DNA of 10,524 nt from a virus. Its lineage: Duplodnaviria; Heunggongvirae; Uroviricota; Caudoviricetes. Where the stretch lies: the IMG/VR virus record IMGVR_UViG_2541047695_000006; one strand, given 5' to 3'. Position 1 is the first letter of the stretch. Every line of letters starts with the position of its first letter. The notes beneath the pieces were generated by a model that saw nothing but the letters and a program-made list of their open reading frames with translations, had not been told where the DNA came from and did not search any database. The position numbers and the translations under genes were made by a program. Below are positions 1-8,811 of this stretch, piece after piece.

Positions 1-1242
1 ATGGCACGAAAAACCACCCCACTAACTATTACGGAGATCAAAAACGCACGACCAGGGGAAAAGGAATATACCCTGCAGGATGGCGGAGGATTATTTCTTC
101 TGGTGAAGCCCTCCGGATCAAAAATCTGGCGTTTTACGTACTACCGTCCGGCAGATAAAAAACGGACTATTATCAGCCTTGGATCGCTAAATGATGTTTC
201 CCTGTCTGATGCCAGAGAGCGACGGAATGAATACAGGTCACTCATAGCAAAGGGAACTGACCCACAGGACTACGAACGCCGGAAACGTGAAGCAGAGAGC
301 AGGAAAAAGGGCAACACGTTCGAAAAAGTTGCCTTGGACTGGTACGAGATGAAAAAAGGCCAGAATCTGGCTTACAACACGATTAAGGATATCTGGCGAT
401 CCCTGGAAAAATACGTATTCCCGTACATCGGAAACACGCCAATAGATACCCTCACCGCTCGCCGCTTTGTTGAGATACTCACACCCATTAAAGCACGCGG
501 CAACCTGGAAACTCTGAAACGCGTTTTACAACGCATCAATGAAGTGATGGATTTTGCTGCCAACAGTGGGCTGATTGACATCAACACCGCCGCGAACGTC
601 CGCAAGGCATTCCCTTCCCCCACTAAAAAGCATATGCCAACCATCCGACCGGAACAGCTACCGCAGCTAATGCACGATTTATCGGTCGCCAGCATAGAAC
701 GGCAAACCAGATTGCTAATCGAGTGGCAACTGCTGACCGTAGCACGCCCAGCCGAAGCAGCCGCCGCACGCTGGGAAGAAATAGATCTCGATGCCGAAAC
801 ATGGACGATTCCAGCCGGACGCATGAAGATGCGCCGTGACCATGTGATCCCTCTTTGCGGTCAGGCGATGGCTGTACTGGAAACAATGAAGCCAATCAGC
901 GCACACAGGGAACATGTTTTTCCCAGCCTTAAAAATCCAATGCTGCCAATGAGCAGCCAGACCGCTAACGCTGCATTGCGCCGGATGGGATACGCTGGTG
1001 TGCTGGTGTCTCACGGATTACGCGCCATATTCAGTACAGCAGCGAACGAGGAAGGATTCGAGCCGGACGTAATCGAGGCCGCACTCGCACACGTGGACAC
1101 GAACGAGGTAAGGCGAGCATATAACCGAAGTAACTACCTGGAAAAACGTGTAGTACTTATGCGCTGGTGGGGTGAATTTGTGGAAGCCGCAGCAACCGGA
1201 GTGACCATAGCCAGTGGTAAAAGGGGTATCCGTGCGGTGTAA
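1..1242 (+). CDS. int: Tyrosine recombinase / site-specific integrase, P4-like family
   Basis: 413-aa ORF. N-terminal arm-binding-type domain (LTITEIKNARPGEKEYTLQDGGGLFLLVKPSGSKIWRFTY), C-terminal catalytic region with HGLRAIFST and a Tyr in RRAYNRSNY. The ATG sits exactly at the window start, so the upstream RBS is not visible. Confidence 0.9.
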   Translation: MARKTTPLTITEIKNARPGEKEYTLQDGGGLFLLVKPSGSKIWRFTYYRPADKKRTIISLGSLNDVSLSDARERRNEYRSLIAKGTDPQDYERRKREAESRKKGNTFEKVALDWYEMKKGQNLAYNTIKDIWRSLEKYVFPYIGNTPIDTLTARRFVEILTPIKARGNLETLKRVLQRINEVMDFAANSGLIDINTAANVRKAFPSPTKKHMPTIRPEQLPQLMHDLSVASIERQTRLLIEWQLLTVARPAEAAAARWEEIDLDAETWTIPAGRMKMRRDHVIPLCGQAMAVLETMKPISAHREHVFPSLKNPMLPMSSQTANAALRRMGYAGVLVSHGLRAIFSTAANEEGFEPDVIEAALAHVDTNEVRRAYNRSNYLEKRVVLMRWWGEFVEAAATGVTIASGKRGIRAV

Positions 1243-1974: not shown

Positions 1975-2232
1975 TGGTGTGAGGTGTAACGCAATGAACA
2001 TAACAAAAAGCGCCCCGTTGCCGGAGCGCCCTTGTGAACAATTAACCTGCTGCGAAAAAAATGGATCAGTGCAGGGGAATTATATCAACTGTGTGAAGAA
2101 GCGCCACTATTGCCGGATAACAGGCAAAGAAAAGGCCACCAGTCACGGTAGCCCTGCGACACAAATTTCGCGTTATCCCCAACGCATGAGCATCGCCAAC
2201 AATGCCACATTTGCGGCTGGTGGGCAATGCAA

Positions 2233-2421
2233 TCAGTCTGGTTCAGTTCGTTGCCATACCTGCAATGAGCGCTTTTCCCTGTACTCTTTAAGGAATTGCT
2301 CAAGGGCAAAAGCACATGGCGCGAATCTTTCTGATTCATGCTCTATCTTTCTGCGCCGTCTTTTCCGTGCCGGTGATAATGTTTTGGTCAATTCTTTATC
2401 GGTCATTGTGTTGTCCTGCAT
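2233..2421 (-). CDS. Hypothetical small basic protein, possibly co-transcribed with the RHH gene
   Basis: 62-aa ORF in the track, immediately downstream (minus strand) of the RHH ORF. No domain recognised and RBS is weak. Confidence 0.2.
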   Translation of the reverse strand: MQDNTMTDKELTKTLSPARKRRRRKIEHESERFAPCAFALEQFLKEYREKRSLQVWQRTEPD

Positions 2422-2463
2422 AGCAATGCGCCGTAATACCTTACACCACGGCGCTGATGGTGA

Positions 2464-2643
2464 TTACTCTGGTTCTTTGGCCTTGCGCCGCTGGCGATAT
2501 TCAACTTCTCGTTTTAATGCCGCAGTAACAAATTGCCCCGTACTTTCGCCAGGCATTTTTACCGCCTCAACATTGTTCATAACTTCATGCGGAACCCTTG
2601 CCGCAACGGTTTGTGATTTTGCGTTTACCGCTTTTGTCGCCAT
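2464..2643 (-). CDS. Small ribbon-helix-helix-like DNA-binding protein (59 aa), candidate repressor; not in the ORF track because it is under 60 aa
   Basis: Translated by hand: MATKAVNAKSQTVAARVPHEVMNNVEAVKMPGESTGQFVTAALKREVEYRQRRKAKEPE. GAGGGG RBS 8 nt upstream. Divergent from the rightward operon and directly facing three palindromic operators. Confidence 0.5.
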   Translation of the reverse strand: MATKAVNAKSQTVAARVPHEVMNNVEAVKMPGESTGQFVTAALKREVEYRQRRKAKEPE

Positions 2644-2693
2644 GTGGTGTACCCCTCATAAAAAACAAATGCAGTATGCAGGAAAAAAAATAA

Positions 2694-2745
2694 GTGTTCA
2701 ACACTTGACGTGTTTAACACCTGGGTTTAAATTGGTGTTCAACAC
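2694..2745. promoter_or_regulatory. Divergent promoter/operator region with three 11-bp palindromes GTGTT(C/T)AACAC
   Basis: Palindromes at 2694-2704, 2710-2720 and 2735-2745. A sigma70-like -35 TTGACG (2705-2710) and -10 TTAAAT (2728-2733) with 17-bp spacer point rightward and are interleaved with the palindromes. Confidence 0.5.
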
Positions 2746-2842
2746 CTTGTTGGCGCAAGGTGCAGAAACGACGAAACCCGGCAGTGCGCTAACACTAACC
2801 GGGCTTCTAACCACCAACGATAGCGAAAGTATCGAGGTAGCT

Positions 2843-3049
2843 ATGAGAAATCATACCACACACCCGCAAGGGCGGGACTCGCACAACCTGAATAAATACA
2901 TCTGGCGTTTTATCGCCCTGAGCACGGCACAACCGCGCGTGATTACCATTGAGGCCACCAGCGAACAGGAAGCGCGTCAGCAATCTCCTGATGGCTGCGT
3001 GATGGTATTCGCTGCCCGTATTCGCCAGGGGGAAACCTATGCACAATAA
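2843..3049 (+). CDS. Small protein (68 aa), first gene of the rightward operon; tentatively Icd-like
   Basis: In-frame C-terminal part of the 1979..3049 ORF, preceded by GAGGT RBS. Sequence MRNHTTHPQGRDSHNLNKYIWRFIALSTAQPRVITIEATSEQEARQQ... The family call is from memory and tentative. Confidence 0.55.
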   Translation: MRNHTTHPQGRDSHNLNKYIWRFIALSTAQPRVITIEATSEQEARQQSPDGCVMVFAARIRQGETYAQ

Positions 3050-3500: not shown

Positions 3501-3788
3501 ATGAAACAGAAAATTTCTGGCTTTACTGCCAGCGGCCCCGCTCGGCCTGAAATCCGCCCCGGCGATATTTTCCGGGATAACTATGGCGGCACGGTAACGA
3601 TAAAAGGCGTGGCAGAACGGCGCATCACTTACCGCCGTGATGGCTACGAATATGACTGCGTGATGCCTGTTTATCAGTTCCGGCGTGATTTCACGCTGGT
3701 GGGCCATCGTAAAGCCGTAAATCAGAAACGTGCAGCAAGTCATATCCGCAAAATTCGTGAAATGCTGGTCGCAGGGGGTAAAAAATGA
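3501..3788 (+). CDS. Hypothetical protein (95 aa)
   Basis: ORF in the track. Its stop overlaps the rep start in an ATGA arrangement. Confidence 0.5.
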   Translation: MKQKISGFTASGPARPEIRPGDIFRDNYGGTVTIKGVAERRITYRRDGYEYDCVMPVYQFRRDFTLVGHRKAVNQKRAASHIRKIREMLVAGGKK

Positions 3789-5191
3789 AACTGGCACCGA
3801 ACGTAAAACTGTTACCGAAAGATAAACACACTGAGGCGGTTATTTTTGCGGGTGATAATGCTCACTCCTTTGCAGAACATTACATGATTGCACAGGCCAA
3901 AAAAGCAGGCGATCCCATCCCTCCGGTTTACCTGGGCCGTTATCAGTTAAGCGAACTGGACAACCTGCAGATTGTTGATGAGGGGCGATACAGGGTAACG
4001 GTGATACGCGCCGGAAATATTGACGAAGCGCAGCTGTTAACCATAGCGACAAAACTGGCGATCGCCGGAGTCCAGGAAGCGCGGCTGCTTTCTGAAAACT
4101 TCGAATTACTGGAGAAATGGACCGACCAGCTTCCACGGCTACGGGAGACATGGGAGAGAGGGGAAAGCCTGATCATGAACGGAGGAAAACAAAAAATCAC
4201 GCTACCGATTTCATGGGGTTCTGAGGGATTCGACGCGCAGCAAAGCTACGTAATTAAGGGGCTTATTCCGGCTGAATCATTATGCAGCACCTACGGGGCC
4301 AGCGGTTCTTATAAATCGTTCCTGGCTATTTCCTGGTCGTGCCATGTTGCCACAGGTATGGCATGGGGAGGCCGCAGGGTAAGTAAGGGCGCGGTTATCT
4401 ATATCGCTGGCGAAGGCAGTATGGGCGTAAAACGCCGCGTTAAGGCGTGGGAGATAACCCACGACAAGGTGGTTACGGATTTGTGCATCGTTAACGCGCC
4501 TGTCTTCCCTGCATCGCCTGACTATGTGGAGCAGGTTATCAGGACCGCCGGATTAGTGCAGGACAGAACGGGCGAAAGGGTGCGGATGATTGTCATTGAC
4601 ACGCTGGCCCGTTGCTTTGGTGGTCATGATGAAAATGACTCCCGCGACATGGGGGCGTTTATCCAGGGGTGTGACGCGATAAAGCAGGCCACGGGGGCCA
4701 CGGTTCTGGTTGTGCATCATTCCGGCAAGGATGAGACGAAAGGGGCGCGGGGTTCCAGTGCATTCCGTGCGGCGCTTGATGCTGAGTTCCGAATCAGTCG
4801 GGAACATTCAGAGGCTACGGCGCTGGTTGCAGCATGTACGAAGATGAAGGACGCGGAGGAGCCAAAAGAAAGCGCCTACGACCTTAAGAGCGTGGAGGTA
4901 TTTACGGATCCTGAGGGTGAAGAAATCGTGTCCATGGTGGTGATTGACGTTCCCCGCGCCCCTGCTGAACTGGAGCGCATAGAGGAGGCCGGGAACAAGA
5001 CGGAAAATCACACGGCTTTATGGGGTTGTATCCGGTCACGTATACAGCATGGTGATAAATGCACGATCCCGCTGCTACGTGATGACATGAAAAAGCTGGG
5101 ATATGACACAAAACACCTTAAACGATGGTTAGCCAAACTGGAAAAAGACGGCGTGATTTGCGTCGATGGGGATGATGTTCACCCACTGTAA
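3785..5191 (+). CDS. Replication initiator / helicase-like protein (RecA/DnaB-like ATPase, PICI pri-rep-like)
   Basis: 468-aa ORF with a P-loop-like GASGSYKS, a Walker-B-like MIVIDTLARCF and VLVVHHSGKDETKGARGSSAF. AGGGGGT RBS. Directly followed by an iteron array. Confidence 0.8.
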   Translation: MKLAPNVKLLPKDKHTEAVIFAGDNAHSFAEHYMIAQAKKAGDPIPPVYLGRYQLSELDNLQIVDEGRYRVTVIRAGNIDEAQLLTIATKLAIAGVQEARLLSENFELLEKWTDQLPRLRETWERGESLIMNGGKQKITLPISWGSEGFDAQQSYVIKGLIPAESLCSTYGASGSYKSFLAISWSCHVATGMAWGGRRVSKGAVIYIAGEGSMGVKRRVKAWEITHDKVVTDLCIVNAPVFPASPDYVEQVIRTAGLVQDRTGERVRMIVIDTLARCFGGHDENDSRDMGAFIQGCDAIKQATGATVLVVHHSGKDETKGARGSSAFRAALDAEFRISREHSEATALVAACTKMKDAEEPKESAYDLKSVEVFTDPEGEEIVSMVVIDVPRAPAELERIEEAGNKTENHTALWGCIRSRIQHGDKCTIPLLRDDMKKLGYDTKHLKRWLAKLEKDGVICVDGDDVHPL

Positions 5192-5390
5192 AAAGTGGGC
5201 GTTAAAAGTGGGAATAGTGGGTAATTTAACTGGAATTTAACAAAATCGCCCACTTTCCCACGTGTATACATCCCAAAAAGTGGGCACTAAAAAAATTCTT
5301 ATGAAACAGTACGATATAAAACCACAAAATCCCAGGTGGGACGAAGTGGGAAACCATGAAAAGTGGGTAGAAAAAGTGGGCACAGGTGGG
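5182..5390. repeat. Iteron array, putative replication origin (consensus about AAAGTGGG)
   Basis: Twelve copies of the GTGGG core: nine forward (5195, 5208, 5217, 5280, 5336, 5346, 5363, 5376, 5386) and three reverse (5182, 5249, 5257). They flank an A/T-rich spacer holding a direct repeat AATTTAAC x2. Confidence 0.7.
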
Positions 5391-5393
5391 CGC

Positions 5394-5645
5394 ATGACCA
5401 GAAAAACCAGAGATAAGACAGCACCAAAATATCGCGCATTAGACATGACAGAGCACGCCTTAAAGGTGGCAATCAGAACGATAGACCGCCACGCCGGAGA
5501 AGGATACGCGAAAGCACATCCCGAACTGATAAGCGCATTCATGACCACGACGGCGGCAAATTTTGCCACGCTGACAGAGCGGGAGATTGCCGAAGCGGAA
5601 CAGGTAACAACAATCAACGTTAAAACCGGAGAGGTGGAATCATGA
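5394..5645 (+). CDS. Hypothetical protein (83 aa; track ORF 5262..5645 probably over-extended into the iterons)
   Basis: In-frame ATG at 5394 with an AGGTGG RBS. Stop overlaps the ssb start (ATGA). Confidence 0.45.
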   Translation: MTRKTRDKTAPKYRALDMTEHALKVAIRTIDRHAGEGYAKAHPELISAFMTTTAANFATLTEREIAEAEQVTTINVKTGEVES

Positions 5646-6064
5646 CAGCACAGATAGCGGCTTACGGGCGGCTGGTGGCTGACCCGCAGTTAAAGACCAC
5701 TAGCAAAGGGACACAAATGGCGATGGCGAGTATGGCGGTTCCCCTGCCGTGCAGCCAGGCAGATGACGGAACGGCGACGATGTGGTTATCTGTCCTGGCG
5801 TTTGGCAGACAGGCCGACGCACTGGCAAAACACCACAAAGGCGAACTCCTGAGCGTGGCGGGTAACATGCAGGTGAGCCAGTGGACAGGCCAGAACGGCA
5901 AAACGCGGCAGGGCTGGCAGGTTATCGCAGATAGTGTAATCAGTGCCAGAACGGCGCGACCGGGCGGCAAAAAAGGTCAACAGGGCCAGGCCACTGACGC
6001 ATTGAACAGGGCAAAACAACAGTCAGGGAATGATGAACCGTACGGCGATAATATACCGTTTTAA
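5642..6064 (+). CDS. ssb: Single-stranded DNA-binding protein (SSB) homologue
   Basis: 140-aa ORF. OB-fold-like segments align by eye with E. coli SSB (LVADPQL; WLSVLAFGRQADALAKHHKGELLSVAGNMQVSQWTGQNGKTRQGWQV), and it has the acidic C-terminal tip ending DNIPF (compare DDDIPF). Confidence 0.75.
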   Translation: MTAQIAAYGRLVADPQLKTTSKGTQMAMASMAVPLPCSQADDGTATMWLSVLAFGRQADALAKHHKGELLSVAGNMQVSQWTGQNGKTRQGWQVIADSVISARTARPGGKKGQQGQATDALNRAKQQSGNDEPYGDNIPF

Positions 6065-6109: not shown

Positions 6110-6280
6110 GCTACATAAATCCCGACCAAAGGAAGTAAATACATTAACACGAATTATCAGCACTGAAGTTGTCACGGCAGATTTTATACAACATTGCACT
6201 TGGTTGCATGTATTCGCATAGCAGACATCGGTAATAGAATATATTCACAATTATTTGTAATGAATGTAAAGAGGATGAGT

Positions 6281-7321
6281 ATGGTTGATTTATATTCGCC
6301 TACACAGCTTGTGCAGGTGGCTAATGCTGAAGATGTGCAAAAAAAACTAAATGCGTTGTTTACCAGTTTGTTTTTCACTCGCTCGGTAATGTTTGAATCG
6401 AGAGACATTATTCTTGATACGATCGACGATCCAAATATCCCGATCGCGGCGTTTTGCTCTCCTATGGTGGGCAGTAAAGTTTCACGAGATGAGGGATACG
6501 AATCAAAAACAATTCGCCCAGGCTATATGAAACCGAAAAGCAGTATTGATCCAAATAAGTTAGCTGTGCGCCCTGCTGGTGTATCACCTGAACAATACAA
6601 TGCTTTTGGAGCGCGTAATATTAAAGTTAAACAGGCGATTGTAAATCAGGCTAAAGCTATACGTGCACGTATTGAATGGCTTGCTGTTCAGGCAATCACA
6701 ACGGGGAAAAATATCATTGAGGGCGATGGTATTGAACGTTATGAACTGGACTGGAATATAAAACCACAAAATATTATCACGCAGTCTGGCGGTGCTGAGT
6801 GGTCAGGTAAGGATAAAGAAACTTTTGATCCAAATGATGATATTGAGAGCTACGCAGAATTTAGTGAGGGCGTCACTAATATCATCATTATGGGCGGTAA
6901 TGTATGGAAGAAATACCGTTCATTCAGAGCGATAAAAGAGGCTCTGGATACCCGTCGTGGTTCTAATTCCGAACTGGAAACGGCCCTTAAAGACCTTGGT
7001 GATTCGGTGAGTTTTAAAGGGTATATGGGCGATGTTGCGATTGTTGTTTACAGCGGACGTTATACCGACGAGGACGGAACTGAAAAACATTTCCTTGATC
7101 CTGATTTGATGGTGCTTGGCAATACGGCTCTTCAGGGGATTGTCGCCTATGGCGGTATTCAGGATCCGGAGCTAATCCGAATGGGGCTGACTAAAGCCGA
7201 ACTTGCACCGAAAAACTATATTGTGCCTGGTGATCCGGCTATTGAGTACATACAAACGCACTCTGCACCACAGCCAATACCGGCCCGCATCAATCGTTTT
7301 GTTACCGTTCGCATTGGCTAA
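6281..7321 (+). CDS. Major capsid protein, lambda gpE-like family
   Basis: Collinear similarity to lambda gpE, for example NIITQSGGAEWSGKDKETFDPNDDIESYA and DTRRGSNSELETALKDLGDSVSFKGYMGDVAIVVYSGRY. AGAGG RBS at 6-nt spacing. An alternative start at 6275 (MSM...) matches the lambda N-terminus. Confidence 0.9.
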   Translation: MVDLYSPTQLVQVANAEDVQKKLNALFTSLFFTRSVMFESRDIILDTIDDPNIPIAAFCSPMVGSKVSRDEGYESKTIRPGYMKPKSSIDPNKLAVRPAGVSPEQYNAFGARNIKVKQAIVNQAKAIRARIEWLAVQAITTGKNIIEGDGIERYELDWNIKPQNIITQSGGAEWSGKDKETFDPNDDIESYAEFSEGVTNIIIMGGNVWKKYRSFRAIKEALDTRRGSNSELETALKDLGDSVSFKGYMGDVAIVVYSGRYTDEDGTEKHFLDPDLMVLGNTALQGIVAYGGIQDPELIRMGLTKAELAPKNYIVPGDPAIEYIQTHSAPQPIPARINRFVTVRIG

Positions 7322-7330
7322 GGGGGAGCA

Positions 7331-7672
7331 ATGGCTACTCATTACACTGAACTCATGTCTGGTACTGAAGCACTGGTTACTACGCTGGGGATATTTTCAG
7401 CCAATAAAGGGGTAATACCTGCGTTTACGCCACTGATGCAGGAAGATGCAACTGGTGCGCTAGTGGTATGGGATGGAACGAGCGCAGGCAAAGCGGTTTA
7501 TGTTTCCGCTGTACAAATCGACACAGCGAAAAAAACACAGGCACAGGTTTATAAGACAGGTGTTTTAAATGTTGATGCTCTGAACTGGCCTGAGTCTGTA
7601 AGAGAACTGTCGGCAAAGGTTGCCGCGTTTGTTGGCTCAGGTATTTCTGTTCAGCCGCTGGCTCGTGTGTAA
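7331..7672 (+). CDS. Head decoration protein, lambda gpD-like
   Basis: 113-aa ORF with gpD-like motifs PAFTPLM, VVWDGT, YKTGxxxxDALNWPE and AFVGSGISV. GGGGGAG RBS. Confidence 0.8.
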   Translation: MATHYTELMSGTEALVTTLGIFSANKGVIPAFTPLMQEDATGALVVWDGTSAGKAVYVSAVQIDTAKKTQAQVYKTGVLNVDALNWPESVRELSAKVAAFVGSGISVQPLARV

Positions 7673-8241: not shown

Positions 8242-8268
8242 TGAAACCTTAACTAAGTGGGGATATTG

Positions 8269-8811
8269 ATGAAATCGCACCTGATGAACAAAAAAACTAT
8301 GGCGCAAAGCTGCCGCGTAAGTGCGACAGCGTTCGACAAGTGGGGAGTAACTCCCGTTGAGCGTAAAGGCCGTGAGGCGTTTTATGATGTTGCTAGCGTG
8401 ATAGACAATAGGGTTAACAATGCAATTAACCAGCTTACAAACGACAAAGGCGAGATTGATGATGATGAACTTTTACGCGTAAGAATCAGATTAATGACGG
8501 CCCAGGCGGAAGCGCAGGAACTTAAAAACGAGCGCGAACGCGGCGAGGTGATTGATACAAAGTTTTGCATCTACGCGATTTCAAAACTAGCGAGTCAGAT
8601 TTCATCAATCATGGACAGCCTCCCGCTCACAATGCAAAGGCGCTTTCCCGATATAAGGCCGTATATGCTGGATGAACTAAAAAGGGAAATAGCCAAAGCA
8701 TGTAACGCATGTGCAAGACTTGACGAAAACCTGCCACAGATACTGGCTGATTACCTGATGGAAACTACCGGAAACGCGCCTGAGAAGTTGCTACAGAACA
8801 AAGGCGAGTAA
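8269..8811 (+). CDS. Terminase small subunit, lambda Nu1-like
   Basis: About 180 aa, collinear with lambda Nu1: N-terminal winged-HTH region (NKK...FYDVASVI) and TAQAEAQELKNERERGEVIDTKFCIYAISKLASQISSIMDSLPLTMQRRFPD. The start at 8269 has a GGGGA RBS; the track ORF begins at an upstream GTG (8257). Confidence 0.85.
   Translation: MKSHLMNKKTMAQSCRVSATAFDKWGVTPVERKGREAFYDVASVIDNRVNNAINQLTNDKGEIDDDELLRVRIRLMTAQAEAQELKNERERGEVIDTKFCIYAISKLASQISSIMDSLPLTMQRRFPDIRPYMLDELKREIAKACNACARLDENLPQILADYLMETTGNAPEKLLQNKGE

Follow-up and report, generated by a model that had tools for sequence, protein, structure and literature searches.

The window analysed here, i.e. the whole stretch of 10,524 nucleotides of the virus record IMGVR_UViG_2541047695_000006, is a phage-inducible chromosomal island (PICI) of about 10 kb from Escherichia coli, in which an array of short repeats fills the gap between rep, the gene of a RepA-type helicase, and the gene of a conserved protein of 83 amino acids (aa). 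We propose that positions 5191-5390 are very probably the vegetative origin of replication (ori) of this phage satellite, and that the repeats are iterons read by the C-terminal winged helix of its own Rep helicase. The computational evidence that supports this reading, already put forward as a claim of origin function in the initial annotation of this DNA, is as follows. First, the array occupies a slot homologous to that of the experimentally tested ori of the island EcCICFT073. Second, its layout is conserved in about 70 loci. Third, its repeats co-vary with helix 3 of the Rep winged helix.

The GTGGG core occurs 29 times in the whole window (both strands): 12 copies lie within 5182-5390 (nine on the + strand and three on the - strand), as had been counted initially, and 17 in the remaining 10.3 kb. 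At the rate observed outside the array, only 0.34 copies would be expected in these 209 bp (Poisson P ~4e-15), and the densest 209-bp stretch obtained in 2000 shuffles of the window held at most 7 copies. The longer form AAGTGGG, expected 1.3 times per whole window, accounts for seven of the array copies, and its only other copies in the window are at 8255 and 8338. The repeats are irregularly spaced, at distances of 8-17 nt inside a cluster and of 23, 32 and 56 nt where a spacer or the dyad core intervenes; Tandem Repeats Finder detected no tandem array here.

The left cluster of direct iterons begins at the final base of the rep stop codon (5189-5191), and its positions are kept in the E. 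coli homologues and family-wide. Its first conserved core, at 5195, lies 4 nt past the stop codon, likewise in the homologous E. coli islands L002-L008 and in the loci L010-L089 from a wider scan. The array had been described as following directly on rep, which holds for 11 copies; the remaining copy, at 5182, lies inside the last rep codons and is probably incidental, because it has no counterpart at that position in L002-L008. Conservation among homologues is partial for the copies at 5257 and 5336. The A/T-rich spacer that follows the left cluster does contain the duplicated element AATTTAAC reported at the outset; it keeps a length of ~26-32 nt throughout and its sequence in the closest relatives only, and it ranks among the 5% least stable 20-mers of the window. 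Next comes a dyad core, built on a perfect inverted repeat of 9 bp (GCCCACTTT and AAAGTGGGC), the axis of which (5266/5267) is also that of the palindrome TGTATACA. It harbors an additional inverted copy at 5257-5261, and its single-strand fold has a z-score of -4. The dyad core is followed by the most AT-rich tract of the array, a candidate DNA-unwinding element with a low duplex stability, the counterpart of which is AT-rich in most loci; six of the 11 intergenic copies lie on its left and five on its right. The first description of two clusters around an A/T-rich spacer thus stands as regards the repeats and the spacer, and has to be redrawn as regards the layout, since the dyad core had been missed, the AATTTAAC spacer lies inside the left half and the main AT-rich tract is at 5286-5332. 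Within this tract, a block AAAAAAAT-N-CTTATGAAACA (~5290-5310) is conserved, or nearly so, in eight aligned E. coli islands of any iteron class; this block (columns 120-139 of the origin alignment A3) fits no DnaA, IHF or promoter consensus.

Table. Features of the repeat array, of rep and of the neighbouring genes (positions in the window).
Feature	Position	Strand	Basis or remark
Tyrosine integrase	1-1242		
DUF4222 protein	3501-3788		
rep, 468-aa AAA_25 helicase	3785..5191	+	
Predicted C-terminal winged-helix domain of Rep, residues 396-468	4970..5188	+	predicted structure
GTGGG copy in the last rep codons	5182..5186	-	His-Pro-Leu codons
GTGGG cores	5195, 5208, 5217, 5280, 5336, 5346, 5363, 5376, 5386	+	motif count
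GTGGG cores	5182, 5249, 5257	-	motif count
Left cluster, three direct iterons AAAAGTGGGC, AAAAGTGGGA, ATAGTGGGT	5191..5221	+	cores 5195, 5208, 5217
AT-rich spacer 1	5222..5247		AATTTAAC at 5223-5230 and 5234-5241
Dyad core	5248..5285		GCCCACTTT 5248-5256 / AAAGTGGGC 5277-5285 around palindrome TGTATACA 5263-5270
Main AT-rich tract, candidate DNA-unwinding element	5286..5332		GC 0.225 at 5290-5329
Right cluster, five direct iterons	5333..5390	+	cores 5336, 5346, 5363, 5376, 5386
Spurious 44-codon extension of the 127-aa ORF	5262..5393	+	open since the repeats carry no stop in frame
83-aa conserved protein, uncharacterised family phrog_1231	5394..5645	+	profile match 1-83/83
Single-stranded DNA-binding protein (SSB)	5642-6064		
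Lambda-E-like capsid protein	6194-7321		
Lambda-D-like decoration protein	7331-7672		

Among 5426 complete E. coli genomes, 875 contain matches to the origin region, with identities ranging from 100% to ~68%, and 1712 contain matches to RepA-type modules, with up to nine module matches in a single one. We compared the window with seven divergent RepA-type islands (L002-L008) and one CFT073-type island (L009). The repeats stand at the same positions in all RepA-type islands and differ in their core sequence, which is AAAGTGGG(C/T) in the window, L002 and L003; AAAGTGGGGAG in L004 and L005; and AAAGTGAGG in L006-L008. Each repeat in alignment A3 keeps AAAAGTG and the G after it without change; its fourth core base is G in five of the islands and A in the other three, a difference seen at all aligned copies and also at the inverted one (CCCAC versus CTCAC). 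The conservation of the repeat in homologous islands, a check that the initial annotation had called for, is thus one of positions, with a core base that varies by class.

The island L009 encodes a 584-aa Rep of the 'DNA primase family' and carries 11 GGTAGA repeats in the same slot before the 83-aa gene. As a published CFT073 primer is the reverse complement of this repeat-slot sequence, L009 represents the experimentally tested origin type. An identical DUF4222 protein (WP_000770163.1) is encoded upstream in L005, L006 and L009, the origins of which are of the GTGGGG, GTGAGG and GGTAGA types, respectively; similarly, the 83-aa gene is kept in islands with different rep-ori cassettes, its 5' end being 88% identical even in the islands with a fused primase-helicase (Pri-Rep). 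Because the identical DUF4222 and the conserved 83-aa gene flank different repeat types, rep and the repeats must be exchanged jointly, as one cassette, and neither neighbour gene can determine the specificity.

Outside E. coli, scanning a single genome for each species yielded 80 loci (L010-L089) with Rep proteins 50-62% identical, in Xenorhabdus, Pantoea, Kluyvera, Kosakonia, Serratia, Pectobacterium, Morganella, Erwinia, Citrobacter and other genera. In most of the 80 loci, a de novo count of k-mers in the DNA that follows the rep stop codon revealed repeated motifs. The layout shared by ~70 loci across Enterobacterales reads, from 5' to 3': two to four direct repeats; a spacer of ~26-32 nt; one or two inverted repeats; an element resembling TATATA/TGTATAC; a single direct repeat; ~45-55 nt that are AT-rich or variable; and three to five direct repeats. 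Exactly 24 nt (~30 bp centre to centre) separate the inverted core from the direct 6-nt core that comes after it in 48 of 74 loci, the window among them. Four core types were found, AAAGTGGG(G), AAGTGGGGGAA, AAAGTGAGGAA and TAAGTGCGGCAT, and the core base shifts in all copies of a locus together (GTGGG, GTGAGG or GTGCGGC).

As to the protein that would read these repeats, the C-terminal domain of Rep is predicted to be a winged helix. The AlphaFold (AF2) model of the last 73 residues has a mean predicted local distance difference test score (pLDDT) of 86.9 and an H-H-H-E-E topology, also found in the full-length model. Its top Foldseek matches are DtxR, the LexA N-terminal domain, Fur, IdeR and the winged helix of MCM8, with query-normalised template-modelling (TM) scores of 0.6-0.74 and weak E-values, as expected at 73 residues. 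Helix 3 spans residues 445-454, with His444 as its N-cap; residues 439-457 are encoded by 5099-5155, and the His444 codon is at 5114-5116.

The repeat class tracks Rep residues 439-457. In the 69 loci that have five or more repeats, the fourth core base was compared with the residue at the aligned position 444: His goes with G in 11 loci, Lys with G in 30, Asn with A in 22 and Ser with C in six, with no exception (0/69). Asn-A and His/Lys-G are common amino-acid-base pairings. Furthermore, two comparisons of whole proteins work as natural domain swaps, judging from the aligned sequences. The Rep proteins of L002 and L006 are identical at 446 of 450 residues outside 439-457 and at only 12 of 19 inside, and their iterons are GTGGGC and GTGAGG, respectively. 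Conversely, Rep of the window agrees with that of L002 at only 175 of 260 core residues (67%) and at 18 of 19 in 439-457, and the iteron is the same in both. Independent switches of class number at least one within E. coli, plus those of the Xenorhabdus, Kosakonia-group and Pectobacterium-group lineages. Linkage of rep to the repeats is alone insufficient to account for a concerted change of all copies in an otherwise alignable origin.

A diversification of origin specificity among co-resident islands, as a guard against cross-talk, was also considered and is unsupported, the same class being shared within single genomes (Xenorhabdus bakwenae, L012 and L014; Xenorhabdus sp. TCT-1, L011 and L020; Pectobacterium sp. 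B2J-2, L047 and L049). From these pairs, cross-activation between resident satellites seems to be tolerated.

The helicase core of Rep (residues ~146-317) carries the Walker A motif GASGSYKS and matches Pfam AAA_25 (PF13481) with an E-value of 6.8e-43 (147 bits for a cut-off of 27). The GxSGxxKS and D272 motifs are invariant in the Rep alignment A1; Rep also matches phrog_2850 over its full length, bears the RefSeq name 'helicase RepA family protein' and matches, in the PDB, the RSF1010 RepA sequence (1G8Y; E 2e-4, residues 155-320). With its RecA-type core, its Walker A and B motifs and its family profile, Rep belongs to the RSF1010 RepA-like helicases of superfamily 4 (SF4). The AAA_25 / RSF1010 RepA-like proteins are known as 5'-3' helicases. 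In the searches, 1986 homologues were detected. In the Rep alignment, three segments recombine independently, namely the N-terminal domain (~1-135), the helicase core and the last ~75 residues. The N-terminal domain (residues 1-135, window 3785-4190), modelled at a pLDDT of ~76-93, has no family match; it exists in E. coli as two alleles of ~40% identity, which assort independently of the helicase core and iteron class, and a DUF927 protein encoded on a 16-kb Klebsiella pneumoniae plasmid record begins with a similar domain (57% identity). It may act in priming or partner recruitment.

The array shows the traits of the origins of PICIs and of the Staphylococcus aureus pathogenicity islands (SaPIs): it lies directly 3' of the initiator gene; sets of short iterons (5-8 nt) flank an AT-rich region; iterons of opposite orientation are present (5248-5256 / 5277-5285, family-wide); and the initiator is a helicase with a C-terminal winged helix, by predicted structure. 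In EcCICFT073, a rep-ori plasmid replicates only when rep and ori are both intact, the deletion of either abolishing replication (PMC6092414); the same article states that several E. coli PICIs share the pri-rep-ori layout of EcCICFT073 (Fillol-Salom et al. 2018, Fig. 2a). The gene order of EcCICFT073 is that of the window (int, alpA-like, DUF4222, rep, ori, 83-aa gene, ssb, capsid, decoration, terS), and its ori lies in the same intergenic slot, with short repeats of both orientations flanking AT-rich DNA. The two islands differ in that EcCICFT073 combines a 584-aa Pri-Rep fusion with 11 GGTAGA repeats, whereas the window combines a 468-aa RepA/AAA_25 protein with AAAGTGGG; of the two origins, that of CFT073 is the bench-tested one.

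The SaPIs possess 6-12 penta- or hexanucleotide iterons directly 3' of rep, with an AT-rich centre and opposite iteron orientations on its two sides (Ubeda et al. 2007, as cited in PMC9371898). The reader of these iterons is a self-loading helicase, which recognises them through its C-terminal winged-helix domain and probably acts as two hexamers (Qiao et al. 2022, PMC9371898). The window resembles them in its iterons 3' of rep, its AT-rich region, its two repeat orientations and its (predicted) C-terminal winged helix. However, the SaPI Reps are AAA+ proteins of SF3 or SF6 (3'-5'), lacking sequence homology to the SF4/RecA-type Rep of the window, the host of which is Gram-negative. Going by its family, the SF4/RecA-type core would give the window Rep a translocation polarity opposite to that of the SaPI Reps.

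Other systems share fewer traits with the window. Similarly to Rep, RSF1010 RepA has an AAA_25 helicase core, and oriV of RSF1010 also has iterons; however, these are 20-bp direct repeats bound by RepC, with RepB' as the primase, whereas the window has 5-9-bp cores of both orientations and a Rep in which the winged helix is fused to the helicase. The alpha protein of P4, another E. coli phage satellite, is likewise a multidomain initiator-helicase with a C-terminal domain for short repeats (octamers in P4), but it comprises a primase and an SF3 helicase, its repeat is TGTTCACC, and it needs a second site, crr. A P4-type iteron was looked for and set aside: TGTTCACC occurs once in the window (5176), at chance level and without conservation, and the AAA_25 type of Rep also places the array outside the P4 ori/crr group. 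The core origins of SV40 (large T) and the papillomaviruses (E1) offer a mechanistic analogy for the dyad core, having inverted pentanucleotide sites round a central element beside an AT tract, and an initiator, itself the helicase, that assembles as two units; these SF3 proteins of eukaryotic viruses are unrelated to Rep and have another origin-binding fold, and a double assembly on the window would be a putative one. Classical plasmid iteron origins (Rep_3/pPS10/R6K/RK2) combine regularly phased tandem iterons of 17-22 bp with DnaA boxes and with an initiator of the WH1-WH2 type that is not a helicase. The window does not fit this type, its cores being 5-9 nt long and irregularly spaced, with no array in Tandem Repeats Finder, and its Rep being a helicase.

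From these comparisons, we infer that the origin operates as follows. After induction of the island, Rep would bind the flanking direct iterons and the inverted pair (5248-5285) via helix 3, residue 444 probably contacting the fourth core base. With its centres ~30 bp apart, the inverted pair would set two Rep assemblies, oriented outward in opposite directions, over TGTATACA, which should melt easily, and the dyad core would be the site of Rep nucleation and first melting. Melting would spread into 5286-5332; next, the helicase would load itself without a separate loader, and the island SSB would coat the strands. We also advance, as a tentative idea that we would not yet favour over its negation, that Rep represents an uncharacterised class of self-loading initiator-helicase, made of an SF4 motor and a winged helix, nucleating on an outward-facing iteron dyad 30 bp apart over a TATA-like palindrome, and with a specificity set largely by one residue at the start of the recognition helix (His/Lys-G, Asn-A or Ser-C, at core position 4).

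Several points weigh against this interpretation. First, the origin assignment rests on computation. Second, the residue classes are clustered by lineage and the 3' end of rep is physically linked to the repeats, so that the 69 loci represent far fewer independent events and the independent switches are few. Third, the AT-rich tracts are unstable, yet the least stable segments of the window lie elsewhere. Fourth, no DnaA box (fewer than two mismatches) or IHF site was found in 5140-5420, and the domain search recognised no primase domain. Fifth, the helicase core was modelled poorly (pLDDT <50 over 313-396), so that the geometry of the hexamer and winged helix is not fixed by the model; a fold search with this full-length, multidomain model (predicted TM score 0.41) gave uninformative matches.

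The repeats might, even if bound by Rep, mainly form a regulatory or copy-control array (an operator for ssb-capsid-terS, or a handcuffing site), initiation taking place elsewhere. Plasmid iterons often serve autoregulation and copy control too, the last repeat of the window abuts the start of the next gene, and the genes all run in the same direction with no + strand terminator after rep (the single terminator-like hairpin in 5000-5700 is on the - strand and at chance level). We nevertheless regard this reading as unlikely, since no sigma-70-like promoter was found in 5000-5700, the slot is that of the tested EcCICFT073 ori, and the dyad palindrome and AT-rich tract are origin-type elements found family-wide. 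Regulatory and origin roles may coexist.

It is still less likely, indeed highly improbable, that the repeats are bound by a different protein of the island or of a phage, serving TerS for packaging, or AlpA or DUF4222 as a target. What speaks for such a role is that the island encodes TerS and two helix-turn-helix (HTH) proteins, and that AAGTGGGG occurs twice near the terS start. However, the same iteron class goes with different packaging modules (a ClpP-capsid fusion in L004 versus TerS and capsid in L005; also L006 versus L007), and the identical DUF4222 flanks three repeat types, the class of which tracks Rep helix 3 instead. The two AAGTGGGG(A) copies, at 8255-8262 (6 nt before the terS start, 8269) and 8338-8346 (inside terS), do not follow the origin class either: the first is unchanged in the Pri-Rep island (GGTAGA origin) and reads AAGTTGG, not GTGAG, in the GTGAG island, and the second is unchanged in both. 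A second, P4 crr-like Rep site near terS was rejected on the same observations, the 8255 copy being the Shine-Dalgarno-like sequence of terS and the 8338 copy corresponding to Lys-Trp-Gly codons.

Finally, the readings of the repeats as a repetitive N-terminal peptide of the 127-aa open reading frame (ORF) 5262..5645 or as a product of chance composition, the probability of which is next to nil, are excluded, even though this frame is open from 5262 in the window and from further upstream in L003, because it is closed in L004-L008, the family profile is only 83 aa long, three copies are on the opposite strand and the shuffles never exceeded 7 copies. The N-terminal 44 codons of this ORF, which the initial annotation had suspected of not being translated, are indeed non-coding, the 5262 start being an artefact of repeats lacking stop codons. 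First, the RefSeq start of this gene is the equivalent of 5394 in every island. Second, the 83-aa product covers the 83-position profile phrog_1231 end to end. Third, the upstream extension of the frame is interrupted by a stop codon that lies 6 nt from the ATG in L004 and L005 and no more than 25 codons from it in L006-L008. One-base indels are also present in this region among homologues. The accompanying suggestion that the ribosome-binding site of the true gene is itself an iteron holds as well: the last repeat (5386-5390, in AGGTGGG) ends 3 nt before the ATG at 5394 and provides the sole Shine-Dalgarno-like sequence (AGGTGG) there.

The island itself adjoins yejM/tRNA-Pro, and a 99.3%-identical copy is found in E. 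coli 504239 between tRNA-Pro/yejM and yejO. It fits the description of Gram-negative PICIs, which measure ~8-12 kb, carry int at an end, occupy a specific attachment (att) site and encode a regulator of the alpA type, a replication module and a few phage-like packaging proteins; in addition to the genes listed in the table, it encodes excisionase/AlpA-like HTH proteins and the small terminase TerS. Several E. coli PICIs are located at yejM, according to Table S1 of PMC6092414. The att core given there for yejM islands was not found in the window, which begins at int. An Rfam scan of the whole window found no structured RNA family. The 356-aa ORF 1979-3049 has no Pfam hit, and only its last ~90 residues match a phage 'transcriptional repressor' family; a near-identical RefSeq copy carries, over this region, only an Icd-like gene (~2843-3049) on the same strand, and a YlcI/YnfO family gene plus a hypothetical gene on the opposite strand. 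This ORF is probably spurious.

The DUF4222-rep-ori-83-aa module is joined, in L002-L008, L091 and L092, to at least three head/packaging modules: a lambda E/D-like capsid with TerS, a ClpP-protease/capsid fusion and another 'phage major capsid protein', often with inserted PerC-family regulators. This suggests modular exchange among classical and capsid-forming PICIs. Some islands are decaying: in RM10809-3 (L003 461-1869), rep is frameshifted and several repeats are degenerate (ATGGGG, one inverted copy lost), and in MS6198 (L002 2000-2328), the 83-aa gene and ssb are truncated pseudogenes. A 16,971-bp circular record of K. pneumoniae deposited as a plasmid (L090, CP018459.1) has TGCGGC repeats in the same layout, with genes for an integrase, a RepA homologue, a capsid protein, a head-tail adaptor, a terminase and a tape-measure protein. 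It resembles a capsid-forming PICI-like element that has been excised and then assembled in circular form, an assembly artefact being also possible. Such a circle is compatible with an episomal form and suggestive of the autonomy of rep and ori.

Iteron origins 3' of rep already count among the defining traits of PICIs, and this att site is catalogued as a location of islands of this family; the existing picture of PICI replication is thus unchanged, and a specialist would not be surprised by the finding. In the literature searched, an initiator of the RepA/SF4 plus winged-helix type, AAGTG-N-GG iterons and a base-tracking residue of helix 3 were not described; Fig. 2a of PMC6092414, outside this search, may draw some of the origins, and the text of the supplements of that article, searched for these repeats, yielded only the CFT073 primers. 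Our analysis assigns, at the strength given above, the origin of a very common E. coli satellite replicon, and corrects an over-long ORF call. The origin variants and the near-isogenic Rep pair of L002 and L006, which differ almost only in helix 3, offer a ready-made experiment on the evolution of initiator-origin specificity, and the variant series could supply orthogonal small replicons. For the biology of satellites, these data show rep and ori travelling as a single cassette between islands whose packaging modules differ. If Rep does represent the initiator class tentatively advanced above, the satellites of Enterobacterales would hold a natural re-programmable set of mutually orthogonal rep-ori pairs.

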